Source: a virus (lineage: Duplodnaviria > Heunggongvirae > Uroviricota > Caudoviricetes). From it: a stretch of DNA of 39,954 nt. The notes beneath the pieces are model-generated. The model was given only the letters and a program-made list of their open reading frames with translations, did not search any database and was not told the origin of the DNA. The position numbers and the translations under genes were made by a program. Location: IMG/VR virus record IMGVR_UViG_2563366978_000009, positions 1-39,954 of that record, one strand, 5' to 3'. This document shows, piece after piece, positions 1 to 39,954 of the stretch (position 1 is the stretch's first letter; each line of letters starts with the position of its first letter).

Positions 1-516
1 ATGAAATTAAAAAAATGTCTTCTGCCTGTGGCAATGTTAGCGTCATTTACTCTGGCAGGATGCCAGTCAAATGCTGATGATCATGCCGCCGATGTTTATC
101 AAACCGATCAACTGAATACCAAACAAGAAACTAAAACCGTTAATATTATTTCCATTCTTCCCGCAAAAGTTGCCGTAGACAACGCCCAAAATAAACGGAA
201 CGCACAAGCCTTCGGCGCGCTTATTGGCGCTGTCGCTGGCGGTGTTATCGGCCACAACGTCGGGTCTGGCAGCAATTCCGGAACGACAGCAGGTGCAGTT
301 GGCGGCGGAGCTGTTGGCGCAGCAGCGGGTTCTATGGTGAATGATAAAACCTTAGTGGAAGGTGTTTCTTTAACATATAAGGAAGGCACCAAAGTGTATA
401 CCTCCACCCAGGTGGGTAAAGAGTGCCAGTTTACGACAGGTTTAGCCGTTGTTATTACCACGACGTATAACGAAACGCGTATTCAGCCAAATACCAAATG
501 TCCTGAAAAGAGCTAA
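1..516 (+). CDS. yfgH: Outer-membrane lipoprotein, SlyB/Pcp-type glycine zipper (host flank, YfgH-like)
   Basis: Signal peptide with lipobox LAGC, DVY motif, then Gly/Ala-rich block GALIGAVAGGVIGHNVG. Length 171 aa and adjacency to a 179-aa ORF and a guaA 3' remnant fit the enterobacterial yfgH-yfgI-guaA locus. Symbol assigned by synteny and length, not by search. Confidence 0.55.
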   Translation: MKLKKCLLPVAMLASFTLAGCQSNADDHAADVYQTDQLNTKQETKTVNIISILPAKVAVDNAQNKRNAQAFGALIGAVAGGVIGHNVGSGSNSGTTAGAVGGGAVGAAAGSMVNDKTLVEGVSLTYKEGTKVYTSTQVGKECQFTTGLAVVITTTYNETRIQPNTKCPEKS

Positions 517-531
517 TAATCAGGAGGAGTC

Positions 532-1071
532 ATGAAGAAAGTTTTTCTTTGCGCCATCTTAGCCTCCTTAAGCTATCCGGCTATCGCCTCATCATTGCAG
601 GATCAACTCTCGGCTGTCGCAGAAGCGGAACAGCAAGGTAAAAATGAAGAGCAAAGGCAGCATGACGAATGGGTCGCGGAGCGCAACAGGGAAATCCAGC
701 AAGAGAAGCAACGTCGCGCAAACGCCCAGGCCGCGGCTAATAAAAGAGCGGCAACGGCAGCAGCGAATAAGAAAGCTCGTCAGGATAAACTGGACGCCGA
801 AGCCACTGCGGACAAAAAACGCGATCAAAGTTATGAAGATGAGCTACGTAGCTTAGAGATTCAGAAGCAAAAACTGGCGCTGGCGAAAGAAGAAGCCCGC
901 GTTAAGCGCGAAAACGAATTTATCGATCAGGAACTGAAGCACAAAGCTGCGCAAACCGATGTGGTGCAATCTGAAGCTGACGCAAACAGAAATATGACTG
1001 AAGGCGGTCGCGATCTGATGAAAAGCGTGGGTAAAGCAGAAGAGAACAAATCGGACAGCTGGTTTAACTAA
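532..1071 (+). CDS. yfgI: Secreted Lys/Ala/Gln-rich charged protein (host flank, YfgI-like)
   Basis: RBS AGGAGG 6 nt upstream; N-terminal signal peptide; 179 aa; followed by a bidirectional terminator. Symbol by synteny and length only. Confidence 0.5.
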   Translation: MKKVFLCAILASLSYPAIASSLQDQLSAVAEAEQQGKNEEQRQHDEWVAERNREIQQEKQRRANAQAAANKRAATAAANKKARQDKLDAEATADKKRDQSYEDELRSLEIQKQKLALAKEEARVKRENEFIDQELKHKAAQTDVVQSEADANRNMTEGGRDLMKSVGKAEENKSDSWFN

Positions 1072-1110: not shown

Positions 1111-1139
1111 AAAAACCCTCTGTAGTAACAGAGGGTTTT
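1111..1139. terminator. Rho-independent terminator hairpin
   Basis: AACCCTCTG / CAGAGGGTT stem with 6-nt loop, A-run upstream and T-run downstream, directly after the 532..1071 stop. Confidence 0.6.
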
Positions 1140-1149
1140 GTTCATTCAT

Positions 1150-1190
1150 AGTACAGGGTTCAAATCATTCCCACTCAATTATTTACGACA
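1150..1190. other. Candidate prophage attachment core carrying the terminal codons of guaA
   Basis: Reverse complement of 1165..1179 reads ATT GAG TGG GAA TGA (I-E-W-E-stop), matching the IEWE C-terminus recalled for GMP synthase. The frame is closed by a stop two codons further upstream, so only the last codons are present. Exact core limits not determinable from one junction. Confidence 0.4.
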
Positions 1191-1289
1191 ATCATAACCA
1201 ATTGAGTGATAACATTTTTCCAAAACTTCATTTTTCTAGTACCGTTTTATATACCGTCACCGGAAATCAGTACCATGAAAAATGCCATG

Positions 1290-1772
1290 CTATCTGGTCA
1301 GGGTGTCGTATTGTTTTTCGCAGACTCTTCCGGCTTCGGCTGCCCGGTCAGCATACTCTGCCAGTTGTCTGTTTCTCTCGAGAGATTTGCTGAGCACGTC
1401 GGCAAGCAAAACTCCGGTGTCTGCGGCTGACGTCCCAGCGCCGACAATGGCGTTATACTGCCTGAGCTGCTCACGGATGGCAAAGAGTTGTTGCTGCAAC
1501 CGGCCAGCGCGAGCGGCAGCATCAAGAGCATCATTGCGCGCCTGGTCGATCCTCTGCTGCGCTTCACGTTCATTGATCGATTTCTCCTGTTCGTAGTGCT
1601 GACGAACTATCTCATCTTCAGCTTTGCGGTCTTCCTTCGCCTGCGCATACCCGGCATCGTACTGACGACTGCCGTGTGCATTCCAGGCTACAACTCCTGA
1701 TATGACCAGAACAGCAAGCATCGCCATGATAACCAACTGTTTCCAGTATGCTTTTGCGAATGCCCAGATCAT
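1290..1772 (-). CDS. Rz-like i-spanin
   Basis: N-terminal TM helix then Gln/Arg/Ala-rich coiled coil; ATGA overlap with the endolysin stop; last gene of the lysis cassette. Confidence 0.75.
1298..1534 (-). CDS. Rz1-like o-spanin lipoprotein embedded in Rz
   Basis: Alternative frame wholly inside Rz; [13 protein letters not shown] signal with lipobox; Pro-rich mature part. Start chosen at the internal Met pair; exact start uncertain. Confidence 0.5.
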   Translation of the reverse strand: MMLLMLPLALAGCSNNSLPSVSSSGSITPLSALGRQPQTPEFCLPTCSANLSRETDNWQSMLTGQPKPEESAKNNTTP

Positions 1773-3493: not shown

Positions 3494-6469
3494 TTACATT
3501 GCCATTAATATAAACATAGCCAATTCGTCATAACGAATTCCGTAGCGTCCTCCTGCTTTTTTTACAAGAATCATATCTCCTGTTTTATATTGAGAATAAA
3601 TTTTCTCACCTGTATCAGGATCTGTGCTCTCTTCAGTTATCACCTCTTCATCCCATACGTCAGGCCATTCATCGTAACACCAAAAAGCATATTGCTCCGG
3701 GTTTAAACCATGCTTTCTAAGAATATCCCCTACGGTTTGAGCGCCAACGCCAAAATGATACCTGGACGACTCAATTCCTTTGTGATTAATTGAGTCATTA
3801 AATTTAAATTTATAGATGACTGACTTTATTTCAATAGCGGCATTACGCTCTGCATTAAGAATATCATATCTTGTTTTAAGAGTTTCATCTGACGTATTGA
3901 TTGACCCGGTTCCTGCATAGATAACAGAGCATCTGTTTGATGGCTGTCCAATAGCTTTAACATTATCATCAACAGGAGCTATTTTATTAGCATCTGCCAA
4001 CCACCAGTCTGTTCCATCAGCGTGACCGATTCTTACTCTTATCCCACTTCTAATATTTAAACTTCCAGTATTGCTCTGTAAATTACAATCTCCTGACGTT
4101 GGTCCAAGCAGTACAGTTTTACCAACACCACATACTACTCTGGCATTTCCTTTTTGTGATACGAGTCTTGACTCACCTCCTGACTGCTCAGGAAGAGATT
4201 TATGGTCTATAAATGCATCGCGGGGGTTAAATACACCGTCTCCAGAATTATATCTTCCTCCTGTATAGTTGTTAAATACAGGACCCCAGTCAACGCCATT
4301 GCCTTCAGAGCACCCGACCATTCTAAGCACTCGAGTATTCCCTGCTGCATATGGTAATGAGCTTGTTGATTGCCGGGAAGCTATCATACGTGCTCCATAA
4401 CCAATAGCATTACCACCATTTATAGTTACATATGCTTGCTGGCTTTCGAAATATGTACTGTAAAAGTTCATATTTCCACAGTCATGTAGATGAATAAGAA
4501 CATCATCCCATCCCTGAATGGTTCCTGCATGTACCTGTACACCGCGAACTGGTTCCCCTGAAACCTCCATACACTCTGATGGCCGGCTGAATGGCTGAGA
4601 CAGGTATTGCGATGTGGCAAGCAGATGTGTGTGGTGATACAGGCTGGTAATGTAGCAATCGAAAAATTGCGTTCCCGCCATACCAAAGTTATCTATGTCA
4701 TTTCGCCGTATAGTAGAACCTACTGTTGCCTCAGAAGCGTTAGACACTCCAGTAAATACTAACTTATCACCGGATACGGATAATCCTGAATAAGTGAAAT
4801 TCCTGCCTCCCGATCTTAAAACCCCGGACGTTTCGAAGGTGTGGCTTGATGACCATGGGATTTCGATAGTGCTGGACGTTACCGCTGTAATTCGGAATAC
4901 ATCATGGGCGCGGATCGAAACACCCTTGAATCCCTGGAATCTACAGTGATAATAGTTTTCATCCTCGCCCTGAGCGGCCAGCGTGCCAGATACAGGAATG
5001 TTCGTTTTTAAAAGTGCCGTCTTGCGCCAGTATCCAACCACCTGCAAATTGCGGTATTCATTGCCAAAAGACGCACGTGACCAAATACCTACATCCCACT
5101 CATCGCCAAGACCGGTATTTGCAATGTCTTTATAACCATCCAGCCCATTGAAATATGGAACAATACGAAAGTTCTCAAGGCGAACACATCCTGTCTCTGG
5201 CATCAATATTGCGGCAGAGAATGGTTTAAGCGTGGCTCTTGTAGCCCCATTAGCATCACCGTTAGTAAAATCCAATAAATCATATGATGACGCAGGTGCC
5301 GTTGTTGTATACGGGTCTTCGGAAGATGGATTAGAAACCACACCACCACTAACATCCATATTAGAAACACAATCTACAGTATATTTTTTATTTCCTACAC
5401 CGTACATCAGGAATGTGGTCCCTGTGGTAATATCAGGAGCAAATGTTGCAGTATATCCAGAGACCCATTTGCCCACACCAAGACCAATTATCCCACCACC
5501 AGAAACAGGTGTTAACGTATCCGTTATTACATACGCATTATCAGTACCATAAATAACCTTTCCTGTGTTAATGGCAGCTTGCCACGCGGCCCAGTCTATT
5601 GACTGAGATAATGAGTCAACAAAAGGATATAAGGATTTTGCTTCAGAAATTGAAGAAAACCTCTCAGATAATGGATGATATTTCCCATCCCCAATTGCTC
5701 CGAATTGTTTTACATTTAAGAAAAGAGCATTGTTTTCATGCTGAGTTATAGTTACAGCCCCGGCAAATGGCTGCCTTACACCAATTAATGCATCACCTTT
5801 TCCTTCTCCTGCGCTAGATAATTGCAGAAGAACATCTGCGGCACTGCCAGAAGGCACAGGTACACCTATAGGTTTACCATTGACGATACCAATGACAGTT
5901 TCTTCCAGTAAATGAACTGGAGGAAGTGGTTCAATAAAATTATCTGGAACCCGTAATGTCCTGTTAATATTCACATTAACAATATTATCAACATAATTCT
6001 TTGTAGCTGCATCTTGAGGCTTGGAAGGATCGCGCAAATTGCGGATGTAATTATTCAAAGCATCGTAATAGTTTGCCACAAATGATGGTTTGCGCAGCGC
6101 CAGGCTAAACCAACTGCGGACTTGCTGTATCAGCATCGTCAGCTTATCTAACGCGTCTTCATGCACCTCAGCGAAAAACTTTCCCTGATTTCGCAGATCA
6201 GTTTCCTGCGTAACCGGGAGCTCTCGTGATATAGAAATCTGATAACCGTTAGCTAACGCCTTCGACAGAATTACATTACCGCCATTATATCCACCAGCCC
6301 CAGTGACAGTGTAATCAGTATCAAGAGCCAGCACAGCGATATTTTCGTCAAGGTCAACCACCTGCACTACCAGATCAGATTCCTTGAAAACCCTAAAGGT
6401 ATAAGGAAATGAAGTCGTAACGCCATTGCCTGTGTATTCGTTGTGGTCAACTTCGGTTGAGACCGTCAT
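3494..6469 (-). CDS. Tailspike / tail fibre: T7 gp17-like N-terminal adaptor, central receptor-binding region, C-terminal S74-type intramolecular chaperone
   Basis: 991 aa; GGAG RBS. N-terminus (EYTGNGVTTSFPYTF...LDTDYTV) resembles the T7 tail-fibre N-domain. C-terminal ~150 aa has the SDETLKT block, like the Ser-Lys autocleavage motif of endosialidase-type chaperone domains. Gly/Ser/Thr/Asn-rich middle. Confidence 0.75.
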   Translation of the reverse strand: MTVSTEVDHNEYTGNGVTTSFPYTFRVFKESDLVVQVVDLDENIAVLALDTDYTVTGAGGYNGGNVILSKALANGYQISISRELPVTQETDLRNQGKFFAEVHEDALDKLTMLIQQVRSWFSLALRKPSFVANYYDALNNYIRNLRDPSKPQDAATKNYVDNIVNVNINRTLRVPDNFIEPLPPVHLLEETVIGIVNGKPIGVPVPSGSAADVLLQLSSAGEGKGDALIGVRQPFAGAVTITQHENNALFLNVKQFGAIGDGKYHPLSERFSSISEAKSLYPFVDSLSQSIDWAAWQAAINTGKVIYGTDNAYVITDTLTPVSGGGIIGLGVGKWVSGYTATFAPDITTGTTFLMYGVGNKKYTVDCVSNMDVSGGVVSNPSSEDPYTTTAPASSYDLLDFTNGDANGATRATLKPFSAAILMPETGCVRLENFRIVPYFNGLDGYKDIANTGLGDEWDVGIWSRASFGNEYRNLQVVGYWRKTALLKTNIPVSGTLAAQGEDENYYHCRFQGFKGVSIRAHDVFRITAVTSSTIEIPWSSSHTFETSGVLRSGGRNFTYSGLSVSGDKLVFTGVSNASEATVGSTIRRNDIDNFGMAGTQFFDCYITSLYHHTHLLATSQYLSQPFSRPSECMEVSGEPVRGVQVHAGTIQGWDDVLIHLHDCGNMNFYSTYFESQQAYVTINGGNAIGYGARMIASRQSTSSLPYAAGNTRVLRMVGCSEGNGVDWGPVFNNYTGGRYNSGDGVFNPRDAFIDHKSLPEQSGGESRLVSQKGNARVVCGVGKTVLLGPTSGDCNLQSNTGSLNIRSGIRVRIGHADGTDWWLADANKIAPVDDNVKAIGQPSNRCSVIYAGTGSINTSDETLKTRYDILNAERNAAIEIKSVIYKFKFNDSINHKGIESSRYHFGVGAQTVGDILRKHGLNPEQYAFWCYDEWPDVWDEEVITEESTDPDTGEKIYSQYKTGDMILVKKAGGRYGIRYDELAMFILMAM

Positions 6470-8876: not shown

Positions 8877-9056
8877 ATGCGAAACGAAAAATTGCAGATG
8901 CGTAGAGCGCAAGCTGCCGCAAGACGTTCTTTCAATGGAAGCGTAGAGTACGTAAAAGTTACTATGACAAAAGATCACGCAAGTCGCGTATCCCGCGCTT
9001 TCTTTGATTCTCGTAACAATAAGGAAAATTATGAGTTCGTCTGCGTCGCAGAATGA
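8877..9056 (+). CDS. Small basic ORF (59 aa) overlapping the YafO-like gene start; candidate antitoxin
   Basis: GAGG RBS 7 nt upstream; below the 60-aa track cutoff; 26-nt overlap with the next gene in another frame. No family recognised. Confidence 0.3.
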   Translation: MRNEKLQMRRAQAAARRSFNGSVEYVKVTMTKDHASRVSRAFFDSRNNKENYEFVCVAE

Positions 9057-9576
9057 TAAAAATCAAATTGTCAGATATAAGGGTCGAGTGTTGCATACGC
9101 AAAATTTCTCGGCCCTTTGTGCATCTGATCTTGAGCTGAAGAAAGTATCTGATGCCTTTACCCAGTATTGGAAAACGGGATACCATCCATCTCTTGGTAA
9201 AGATGCTGCATTTGCTCGTCCGACAGAAATGCTTAAACTAAATGTCAGGCATACTCATGTCGATAACCAAGACTATATTCCAGAAGATAGTGATAAAAAA
9301 CACACTGGTAAAAAATCATCTTGGGATGCATGGAAAAATATAGCGTCTGTACAAGTAAAATGCATACCAACAAGTGATTGCTTTTTAGTTTATTCGGTAA
9401 ATCACAATCGTGATGCGCTGGTTATGTTTTTTGTTGACGCAGATGCTCACAACATAACTGAGCAAGAAGAGTTTAAAGAGGAAGCAATCACTATCAGTTA
9501 TCAATTCTTTGAGAAAACAAAAACAGAACCAATGCCTTTAGAAGAAGATCTTTTTTCTGATAAATGGAAGGAATAG
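9031..9576 (+). CDS. YafO-family toxin-like protein
   Basis: ATG at 9031 with AAGGA RBS (track ORF starts at an upstream TTG). Blocks SDAFTQYWKTG, LGKDAAFA, VRHTHVDNQDYIP, CFLVYSVNHNRDALVMFFVDA parallel YafO as recalled (FISYKRDG, FGRDALY, VAHIHLANENNPFP, AHLVYCQGAFDEQAWLLIAIL). Low GC. Confidence 0.5.
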   Translation: MSSSASQNDKNQIVRYKGRVLHTQNFSALCASDLELKKVSDAFTQYWKTGYHPSLGKDAAFARPTEMLKLNVRHTHVDNQDYIPEDSDKKHTGKKSSWDAWKNIASVQVKCIPTSDCFLVYSVNHNRDALVMFFVDADAHNITEQEEFKEEAITISYQFFEKTKTEPMPLEEDLFSDKWKE

Positions 9577-26477: not shown

Positions 26478-26554
26478 GTGGCATTAGCTCAGTTGGACAG
26501 AGCAACCGCCTTCTAAGCGGTTGGTCGCAGGTTCGAATCCTGCATGCCACGCCA
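26478..26554 (+). tRNA. tRNA-Arg (anticodon UCU), phage-encoded
   Basis: Hand-folded cloverleaf: acceptor GUGGCAU/AUGCCAC, D-arm GCUC-AGUUGGACA-GAGC, anticodon stem ACCGC/GCGGU with loop CUUCUAA, T-arm GCAGG-UUCGAAU-CCUGC, discriminator G, encoded CCA. Confidence 0.9.
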
Positions 26555-26639: not shown

Positions 26640-26717
26640 ACAGCAGGACGCCATTGCGATGACTTCATGCTGTAAACCAGTACAGCCACGGAAGGCATAA
26701 CTCATTGCTTCCAGTTC

Positions 26718-26741
26718 GCCCGGTTCGCCGGGCATTTTTTT
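26718..26741 (+). terminator. Rho-independent terminator
   Basis: GCCCGG TTCG CCGGGC followed by A and seven T. Confidence 0.7.
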
Positions 26742-26757
26742 GCTTGATGACCGCAAA

Positions 26758-26772
26758 TTACCTTAAAGGTAT
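26758..26772. promoter_or_regulatory. Operator palindrome TTACC-N5-GGTAT (one mismatch) fused to a TATAAT -10
   Basis: TTACCTTAAAGGTATAAT; TATAAT at 26770..26775. Confidence 0.5.
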
Positions 26773-26800
26773 AATCATGAAAAACTTCAAGGTAATTAGC

Positions 26801-27595
26801 ATGTTTGAATCCTTCAAAGAGCTGTTTTTATCTACTGCCAATACTGCCGTGAATCGAGCCAAAAACCCTGTGCTTGGTGCTTTTGTTATGTCCTGGTGCG
26901 CCTTCAACTGGAAATCAATTCTTTATCTATTTTTTAGCAAATCAAACATAATAGATAAAATTTCATATATCTCAGATAACAGCACATGGAAAACTGTTAT
27001 GTTTTATCCATGCTTATCTGTAATTGCTATCTGCTGCCTATTACCATGGGTAAACAATATCATTAACGTATGGCAAGCAAAGCCTCTTGATAATAATGAC
27101 TCAATCGATAATCACCTGAAGGCAAGAAAAATCCAGCGTGAAACCAGACTGCAGAGGTTATTGGCTAAAAAAGATGTTACATACGACAAAGTTAAGACTG
27201 GCGCGGAAAAAGACATCCAAGAGATGAAAGAAGAGATTATTCGATCAAAGAATAGTATGGGGGAATTGACTGCCGAGTTGAAAGCTAAAGATGACGAATT
27301 GAGATCCGCCAGTGCTCAGTTAGCAGCTCTAAATCATTCATTAAAAGAGATATCGGAAACTCTGGGAAGAATGAATGAGGCATATAAGACCCTCCAAAAT
27401 GATTTCGACGAATACAAACTCAAATACCCTGAAAAATCTCAAATAAAAAGTCTTGCACTTGGCAACGGCCAAACAATTAGCAACTTTTTGGAGCAACACA
27501 ACTTATCCGGATTAAAATCTGGTAAGCCAGACGTTTTTAATAACTTTGGTGTTCTATCTGGATTATCAGGTTTCGAGGATAAAAATAAAGACTAA
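26801..27595 (+). CDS. Membrane protein with two N-terminal TM helices and a long C-terminal coiled coil
   Basis: Start at 26801 with AAGG RBS (alternative ATG at 26777 abuts the -10). Low GC; opposite strand to the flanking terminase and portal genes. No family recognised. Confidence 0.6.
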   Translation: MFESFKELFLSTANTAVNRAKNPVLGAFVMSWCAFNWKSILYLFFSKSNIIDKISYISDNSTWKTVMFYPCLSVIAICCLLPWVNNIINVWQAKPLDNNDSIDNHLKARKIQRETRLQRLLAKKDVTYDKVKTGAEKDIQEMKEEIIRSKNSMGELTAELKAKDDELRSASAQLAALNHSLKEISETLGRMNEAYKTLQNDFDEYKLKYPEKSQIKSLALGNGQTISNFLEQHNLSGLKSGKPDVFNNFGVLSGLSGFEDKNKD

Positions 27596-39120: not shown

Positions 39121-39763
39121 GAAATACACACTAATCTATGCAGATCCACCCTGGGTATACCGGGACAAAGCCGCAGATGGTAATCGCGGTGCCGGTTTTA
39201 AATATCCGGTTATGAGTGTGCTGGATATCTGCCGCCTTCCTGTGTGGGATTTGGCCGATGAAAACTGTCTGTTGGCCATGTGGTGGGTGCCAACACAACC
39301 ACTCGAAGCACTAAAAGTTGTTGAAGCCTGGGGATTCCGTCTGATGACGATGAAGGGCTTCACGTGGATAAAATGTGGTAGTCGACAACCAGATAAACTG
39401 GTTATGGGTATGGGACACATGACTCGCGCCAATAGTGAAGATTGCCTGTTTGCGGTAAAGGGAAAACTACCTACGCGCATTAATGCAGGGATCGTTCAGT
39501 CATTTACCGCACCGCGGCTTGAGCATTCAAGAAAGCCAGATATCGTTCGTGAAAAACTTGTGCAATTATTAGGCGATGTTTCTCGCATTGAACTGTTCGC
39601 CCGCCAGTCGTCTCATGGCTTCGATGTTTGGGGTAATCAGTGCGAAGACCCAGCCGTGCAACTACACCCAGGATACGCGTTGGATATTGGCGGATTAACA
39701 AATGCATTCAGCAATGCTCCGCTGTCACCAACAGACAACCAGGGGAGGGAGCGTGCAGCATGA
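39113..39763 (+). CDS. DNA N6-adenine methyltransferase, MT-A70 family
   Basis: Start MTKKYTLIYADPPW with GGTGG RBS; DPPW catalytic motif near the N-terminus. Confidence 0.7.
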   Translation: MTKKYTLIYADPPWVYRDKAADGNRGAGFKYPVMSVLDICRLPVWDLADENCLLAMWWVPTQPLEALKVVEAWGFRLMTMKGFTWIKCGSRQPDKLVMGMGHMTRANSEDCLFAVKGKLPTRINAGIVQSFTAPRLEHSRKPDIVREKLVQLLGDVSRIELFARQSSHGFDVWGNQCEDPAVQLHPGYALDIGGLTNAFSNAPLSPTDNQGRERAA

Positions 39764-39954
39764 ACAGGGCATCACCAGCAGATTTAAGGAAATGCCTTGA
39801 AACTGCAAACATGCTTGCACACAGCGGGATCAGGTTTGTTCCAATTCCCGCTGTCACTGATGCTGAATTTGCAACGCTGTCAGCAATATTCGCAGACAAA
39901 ATTGAATCACTGGCAGCAGAAGCCGAGATGGAAGAAAATCAGCAGAATAATTAA
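39760..39954 (+). CDS. Hypothetical protein
   Basis: Start MNRASPADLRK with GGGAGGGAG RBS, ATGA overlap with the methyltransferase stop; stop TAA at the window end. Confidence 0.5.
   Translation: MNRASPADLRKCLETANMLAHSGIRFVPIPAVTDAEFATLSAIFADKIESLAAEAEMEENQQNN

Follow-up and report, generated by a model that had tools for sequence, protein, structure and literature searches.

Positions 1111–1190 of the window, by which we mean the whole stretch of 39,954 nucleotides that was analysed, almost certainly represent one host–prophage junction of a Uetakevirus prophage in E. coli, located on the lysis-gene side of the element and far from its integrase. The insertion point, the 3′ end of guaA, is a published and already known site, and the junction is an ordinary one of the epsilon15/phiV10 type. 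Collinearity with both the empty bacterial site and the phage attP was observed directly for the junction in the window, and that of the far junction was observed in relatives only. The host side of the junction contains the following features.

1–516, plus strand: host gene yfgH (lipoprotein, glycine-zipper 2TM); open reading frame, with RefSeq and K-12 annotation
532–1071, plus strand: host gene yfgI (DUF5384); open reading frame, with RefSeq and K-12 annotation
1111–1141, no strand assigned: host two-way terminator hairpin AAAAAACCCTCTGTAGTAACAGAGGGTTTTG in the yfgI/guaA interval, identical in the K-12 empty site
1142–1162, no strand assigned: host spacer (B arm) from the terminator to the core, collinear with K-12 with few substitutions and a 1-nt indel

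The names yfgH and yfgI come from RefSeq genomes that match the window at 97–99%, as well as from K-12, and this shared annotation bears out the proposal of an earlier note, made from the letters alone, that the two leftmost genes are the yfgH–yfgI pair. The order in the K-12 empty site is yfgH, yfgI, the hairpin, 21 nt and the stop codon of guaA, a gene that is oriented towards yfgI. The window corresponds to this site through position 1179 and then diverges: past the core, K-12 runs into ggtagctggcgg, which is part of the guaA body, and the window runs into tatttacgacaa. A lookup of the uninterrupted yfgI–guaA site in K-12, a comparison of the kind that the earlier note had proposed, showed yfgI, the terminator and the guaA stop in the same order and a sequence that is identical as far as the core. 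Folding of the hairpin at 1111–1141 as RNA gave −22.8 kcal/mol (z −8.3) for the plus strand and −18.2 kcal/mol (z −5.6) for the minus strand, the latter with a U6 tail. Although the hairpin was clear by folding, a simple terminator scan of positions 1000–1400 found none, probably because the A/T-rich base of the stem consumes the T-run. The span 1111–1190 that the earlier note had marked out includes this host hairpin.

The attachment core and the first part of the phage side are made up as follows.

1163–1179, no strand assigned: 17-bp attachment core AATCATTCCCACTCAAT, shared by attB, attP and the two prophage junctions
1165–1179, minus strand: orphan guaA tail, IEWE plus TGA, by translation; no open reading frame spans it
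1180–1289, no strand assigned: phage arm (lysis-gene side of attP), non-coding, collinear with phiV10 attP
1251–1260, plus strand: putative arm-type integrase site ATACCGTCAC, 88 nt from the core start
1290–1772, minus strand: Rz-like spanin (DUF2514), the first prophage gene (Pfam E = 1.5e-42; phiV10 annotation)

The plus strand at 1161–1190 reads caAATCATTCCCACTCAATtatttacgaca. Within it, the core was delimited as the overlap of the host homology, which extends to 1179, and the phage homology, which begins at 1163; its 17 bp comprise the last four guaA codons, the stop codon and two bases beyond, and they locate the left prophage boundary to the base. The core is present in K-12 attB, at the far junctions of relatives and in the attP sites of phiV10, epsilon15, Tyrion (a phage of Enterobacter) and BUCT711 (a phage of Klebsiella); direct reading of the last three attP sites showed it to be invariant. 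For phage vB_EcoP_ZX5, the core of attP and attB was given as attgagtgggaatgatt, the same core sequence was reported for the attP of phiV10 and epsilon15, the attB, attL and attR products were confirmed by PCR and Sanger sequencing, and integrase-dependent excision restoring attB and attP was demonstrated (PMC9782041). Positions 1163–1179 of the window are the exact reverse complement of the published core ATTGAGTGGGAATGATT. Insertion into guaA was also reported for TL-2011b, a relative of phiV10 (PMC3293862).

The minus strand at 1165–1179 reads ATT GAG TGG GAA TGA, that is, Ile-Glu-Trp-Glu-stop. GuaA of K-12 ends in ...SGKPPATIEWE*, and the last 15 nt of its gene are the same as those at 1165–1179, so that the assignment of this segment to the GuaA C-terminus, as made in the earlier note, stands. 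Considering that short matches can occur randomly and that no open reading frame covers 1165–1179, the segment could be taken for ordinary intergenic DNA in which 15 nt resemble the end of guaA by chance. This reading is so improbable as to be negligible, because the 17-mer, which occurs a single time in the window, has an expectation in shuffled sequence of only 0.03 even when 2 mismatches are allowed, falls exactly on the switch from host to phage DNA and is identical to the published core. Once attB and attP were set beside the window junction and the far junctions seen in relatives, the chance match was rejected.

On the junction reading, the segment is a duplicate and not the functional end of guaA. 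The reverse complement of 1165–1200, TGGTTATGATTGTCGTAAATAATTGAGTGGGAATGA, translates as WL*LS*IIEWE*: the codon upstream of the tail is ATA (1180–1182) and the next one is TAA (1183–1185), and therefore the frame of the orphan tail closes in the DNA to the right. This closure two codons upstream, in phage DNA, is as the earlier note had described it. By contrast, its claim that the end of guaA is regenerated at this position has to be corrected, since the segment is in fact an orphan duplicate beside yfgI and not a gene, with about 40 kb of prophage between it and guaA. For annotation, this means that the five-codon guaA tail should not be called as a gene and that the integrase and an intact guaA are to be expected just past the end of the window.

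On the phage side, the attP region of phiV10 (...gttagctgttAATCATTCCCACTCAATtatttacggcaacc...) corresponds nearly base for base to the window from the core onward. When the search was run with a query beginning at position 1100, all free-phage matches started at window position 1163 (query position 64), and the phages matching from there include phiV10, vB_EcoP_ZX5, HEMP4, EC.W1-9 and the O157 typing phages 9 and 10. The putative arm-type site ATACCGTCAC lies at +88 in the window, phiV10 and epsilon15 alike, which is a matter of sequence conservation only, and phiV10 and epsilon15 contain further copies on the other arm, at −134 and −369. In the epsilon15 record NC_004775.2, the ATACCGTCAC 10-mers are annotated as integrase protein_bind features, which are predictions of the annotators, and predicted IHF sites are annotated over and beside the core. 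We also observed an imperfect inverted repeat, CACTCAATTATTTACGA / TCATAACCAATTGAGTG, at window positions 1172–1188 and 1192–1208. It begins in the right half of the core, so that 8 core nucleotides (ATTGAGTG) recur in the phage arm, and it falls where the epsilon15 record annotates IHF sites.

After the spanin come a GH19 endolysin, two holins and a tail spike of 991 aa, in the same order as in the prophage of SBF22, a relative with the same left junction. Beyond them, the gene order remains that of phiV10 and the SBF22 prophage, with injection proteins, capsid, portal and terminase, and likewise replication and recombination genes and a methylase. Judged from its genes, the prophage is a member of the genus Uetakevirus (epsilon15/phiV10 type) that is present nearly whole in the window. 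The earlier note had suggested an epsilon15-type phage, and the phiV10-like gene content and order, together with the arm matching phiV10 attP, agree with this suggestion. The phage part is 88–98% identical to phages in the database, with differences in the tail spike and accessory genes, and the best complete E. coli genomes match the window with about 98% identity over 92% coverage.

Because the site GAGTGGGA, which is used by GIsul2, lies inside the same 17 bp, and because several genomes of Enterobacterales and Pseudomonas have non-phage arms there, we considered whether the element might be another guaA-targeting island, of the GIsul2 type or similar, and not a phage. There is practically no likelihood of this, given that the DNA to the right of the core carries phage genes for lysis, tail and capsid that are collinear with phiV10 and that the arm beside the core is almost base for base that of phiV10 attP. 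A GIsul2-type island was rejected accordingly: GAGTGGGA is present in the core, but the flank is phage DNA without GIsul2 backbone genes or arms.

Several genes inside the Uetakevirus prophage deserve separate mention. The tail spike (3494–6469, minus strand, 991 aa) gave only a weak C-terminal signal for an endosialidase chaperone (Peptidase_S74), its DNA found a good match solely in the prophage record YDC107_2, and its receptor-binding module is unlike that of phiV10. The accessory region that separates the tail spike from the injection genes contains a 190-aa open reading frame (9004–9576, plus strand) that matched the YafO toxin family, with a Pfam E value of 9e-6 that is just above the cut-off; other genes are found at this position in the relative SBF22. 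A phage-borne tRNA-Arg with anticodon TCT is located at 26478–26554 on the plus strand. It is followed by a 296-aa open reading frame (26705–27595, plus strand) that has no Pfam match and gave only weak PADLOC matches of the coiled-coil kind (DndD, LmuB and JetC regions), and at this position the relatives have a shorter, unrelated gene. Some relatives contain pseudogenes within the prophage.

The window ends with the gene that, in relatives, precedes the integrase.

39760–39954, plus strand: DUF1382-family gene, 64 aa, the last gene in the window, which ends on its stop codon

In relatives, the DUF1382 gene ends 3 nt before the integrase gene. In SBF22, the DUF1382 gene and these 3 nt are followed by a 416-aa tyrosine integrase on the minus strand, and beyond it by about 190 nt of phage arm, the core, intact guaA and guaB. 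The same succession of int (416 aa) and guaA (525 aa) was found in 10 of the 10 contigs that encode an identical DUF1382 protein and that are 96–98% identical over the last 10 kb of the window. The integrase in relatives comprises the Pfam families PF13356 (Arm-DNA-bind_3), PF22022 (Phage_int_M) and PF00589 (Phage_integrase). In all ten contigs the core occurs at the same offset, flanked on the left by an arm that equals phiV10 at 53–60 of 60 positions and on the right by 30 nt of which 27–30 agree with K-12 guaA. The integrase and guaA, which had been predicted to lie past the right end, were thus seen there in SBF22 and the 10 contigs. As for the direct repeat of the core that had been anticipated at the other prophage end, it is present in the 11 relatives; the window itself holds one copy and ends before the second.

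Since the far end lies beyond the window, and considering the pseudogenes inside the prophage in some relatives, the junction might instead be the scar of a decayed or rearranged remnant that has lost its far end, with guaA truncated or displaced, and not half of a working pair. We regard this as very unlikely. From the junction to 39954 the gene order in the window is full-length and phiV10-like and has the size expected, the window ends exactly at the gene preceding int, and int, a second copy of the core and an intact guaA were found in 11 of the 11 related genomes that were read. Moreover, loss of guaA makes E. coli require guanine, and a truncation of guaA is unlikely for this reason. From these relatives we infer that, in the genome from which the window derives, the prophage is probably complete and guaA intact.

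The junction of a complete Uetakevirus prophage would arise by recombination, catalysed by a P4-type tyrosine integrase, between the attP core and the 17 bp of identical sequence at the guaA 3′ end. The integrase would bind the arm-type sites and the core, and IHF would bend the arms; this scheme is established for P4-type and lambda-type tyrosine integrases. Strand exchange would take place within the 17 bp of identity between attP and the guaA end, which places the crossover presumably inside the core. Integration would then leave a five-codon orphan tail beside yfgI that encodes nothing, and duplication of the core would keep guaA intact at the junction on the integrase side. Integration into the 3′ end of a gene, with the gene end duplicated in attP, is a strategy also used by P4-type integrases at tRNA genes and by phage 21 at icd. 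The shared principle is that the phage core carries the end of the target gene, which is intact after integration; compared with the P4-type integrases at tRNA genes, the target here is protein-coding and only 4 codons plus the stop codon are carried.

Among known systems, phiV10 and vB_EcoP_ZX5 (Uetakevirus) are the closest to the prophage in the window. They have an identical 17-bp core, the same arm apart from a few substitutions, an arm-type site at an equal offset, the same lysis genes beside the junction and the same host site between yfgI and guaA, and they differ from it only at the strain level. The attP of Salmonella phage epsilon15 has the same core, the same ATACCGTCAC offsets (−369, −134 and +88) and the terminator hairpin 44 nt from the core, whereas its arms are only about 80% identical and its host is Salmonella. 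GIsul2 and related islands use the same highly conserved guaA end, with GAGTGGGA in the middle of the core, but they are resistance islands with other arms and another integrase context, and nothing of GIsul2 is found in the window. The GIsul2-type islands were reported to recombine at GAGTGGGA, in the centre of the same site (PMC9376610).

Comparison of the attP regions revealed a resemblance that extends beyond the core. In every Uetakevirus attP that was read, a hairpin, AAAAACCC[T/C]C[T/C]GTAAAAACAGAGGGTT, is located on the integrase side, always 44 nt from the core. The phiV10 version is AAAAACCCTCTGTAAAAACAGAGGGTT, with one or two changes in the other phages. When the phage hairpin was compared with the E. 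coli guaA/yfgI terminator AAAAACCCTCTGTAGTAACAGAGGGTT, 25 of 27 positions were equal and both differences were in the loop. The records of phiV10 and epsilon15 annotate the phage hairpin as a rho-independent terminator. The look-alike hairpins are located at the following positions.

L003 (phiV10), 982–1014: phage hairpin
L014 (epsilon15), 328–357: phage hairpin
L001, 41384–41413: phage hairpin
Window, 1111–1141: host hairpin

A related host hairpin is found in Enterobacter hormaechei. The phage terminator is conserved within the phage lineage, that is, among phages of E. coli, Salmonella, Enterobacter and Klebsiella, and the idea that it tracks each host's own terminator was rejected in favour of this conservation. 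Conservation by lineage without tracking of the host fits an old capture or convergence, and not an ongoing exchange. Because guaA and int are co-oriented, the phage hairpin comes to lie between guaA and int after integration, where it would stop guaBA read-through before int. On the other side, the host hairpin, separated from the core by 21 nt, faces the leftward transcripts of the lysis genes and would end them, shielding yfgI from late transcription. We infer that integration would swap two look-alike terminators. It is conceivable, although we judge it somewhat less probable than not and put it forward tentatively, that beyond the short core the phage carries a captured 3′ flank of host guaA, consisting of the coding tail and the terminator, and that equivalent terminators are exchanged. 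No statement of this idea was found in the literature searched. The look-alike is a small point, bearing on how phage and host operon avoid disturbing each other.

To place the junction among complete E. coli genomes, a 181-bp query across it was used, with a match over at least 80% of its length counted as positive, and an equivalent K-12 query was used for the empty site. The junction was found in 551 of 5,426 genomes (about 10%) and the empty site in 4,571 of the 5,426; the remaining 300 or so presumably have other elements or different arms at the guaA site. In E. coli, the guaA end serves as a common hot spot for prophages, and the importance of the present junction beyond annotation is small.

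The conservation of the site itself is a separate observation. The 20-mer AATCATTCCCACTCAATGGT, consisting of the core and the next three guaA bases, is exact across many phyla among the matches listed, whose labels include Proteobacteria, Clostridia, Bacteroidia, Cyanobacteria, Verrucomicrobia and an archaeal MAG. Such conservation at the nucleotide level is unusual for a coding 3′ end, and the extreme conservation of the guaA end likely helps explain its use by several unrelated elements. When a Salmonella attB was sought among GTDB representatives with the core plus guaA, no Salmonella was present among the matches listed (at least 80 loci). In genomes labelled Citrobacter, Tatumella, Yersinia, Pantoea, Pseudomonas and 'Gordonia', the core is adjoined, among the matches listed, by a shared non-phage arm (...aaaaagcccgc..acgcgggcttagaggtactttactgc...gccagacgcga), which points to a different family of integrative elements at the guaA site. 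On the 'Gordonia' contig, guaA and the arm resemble those of Pseudomonas, suggesting contamination or transfer.
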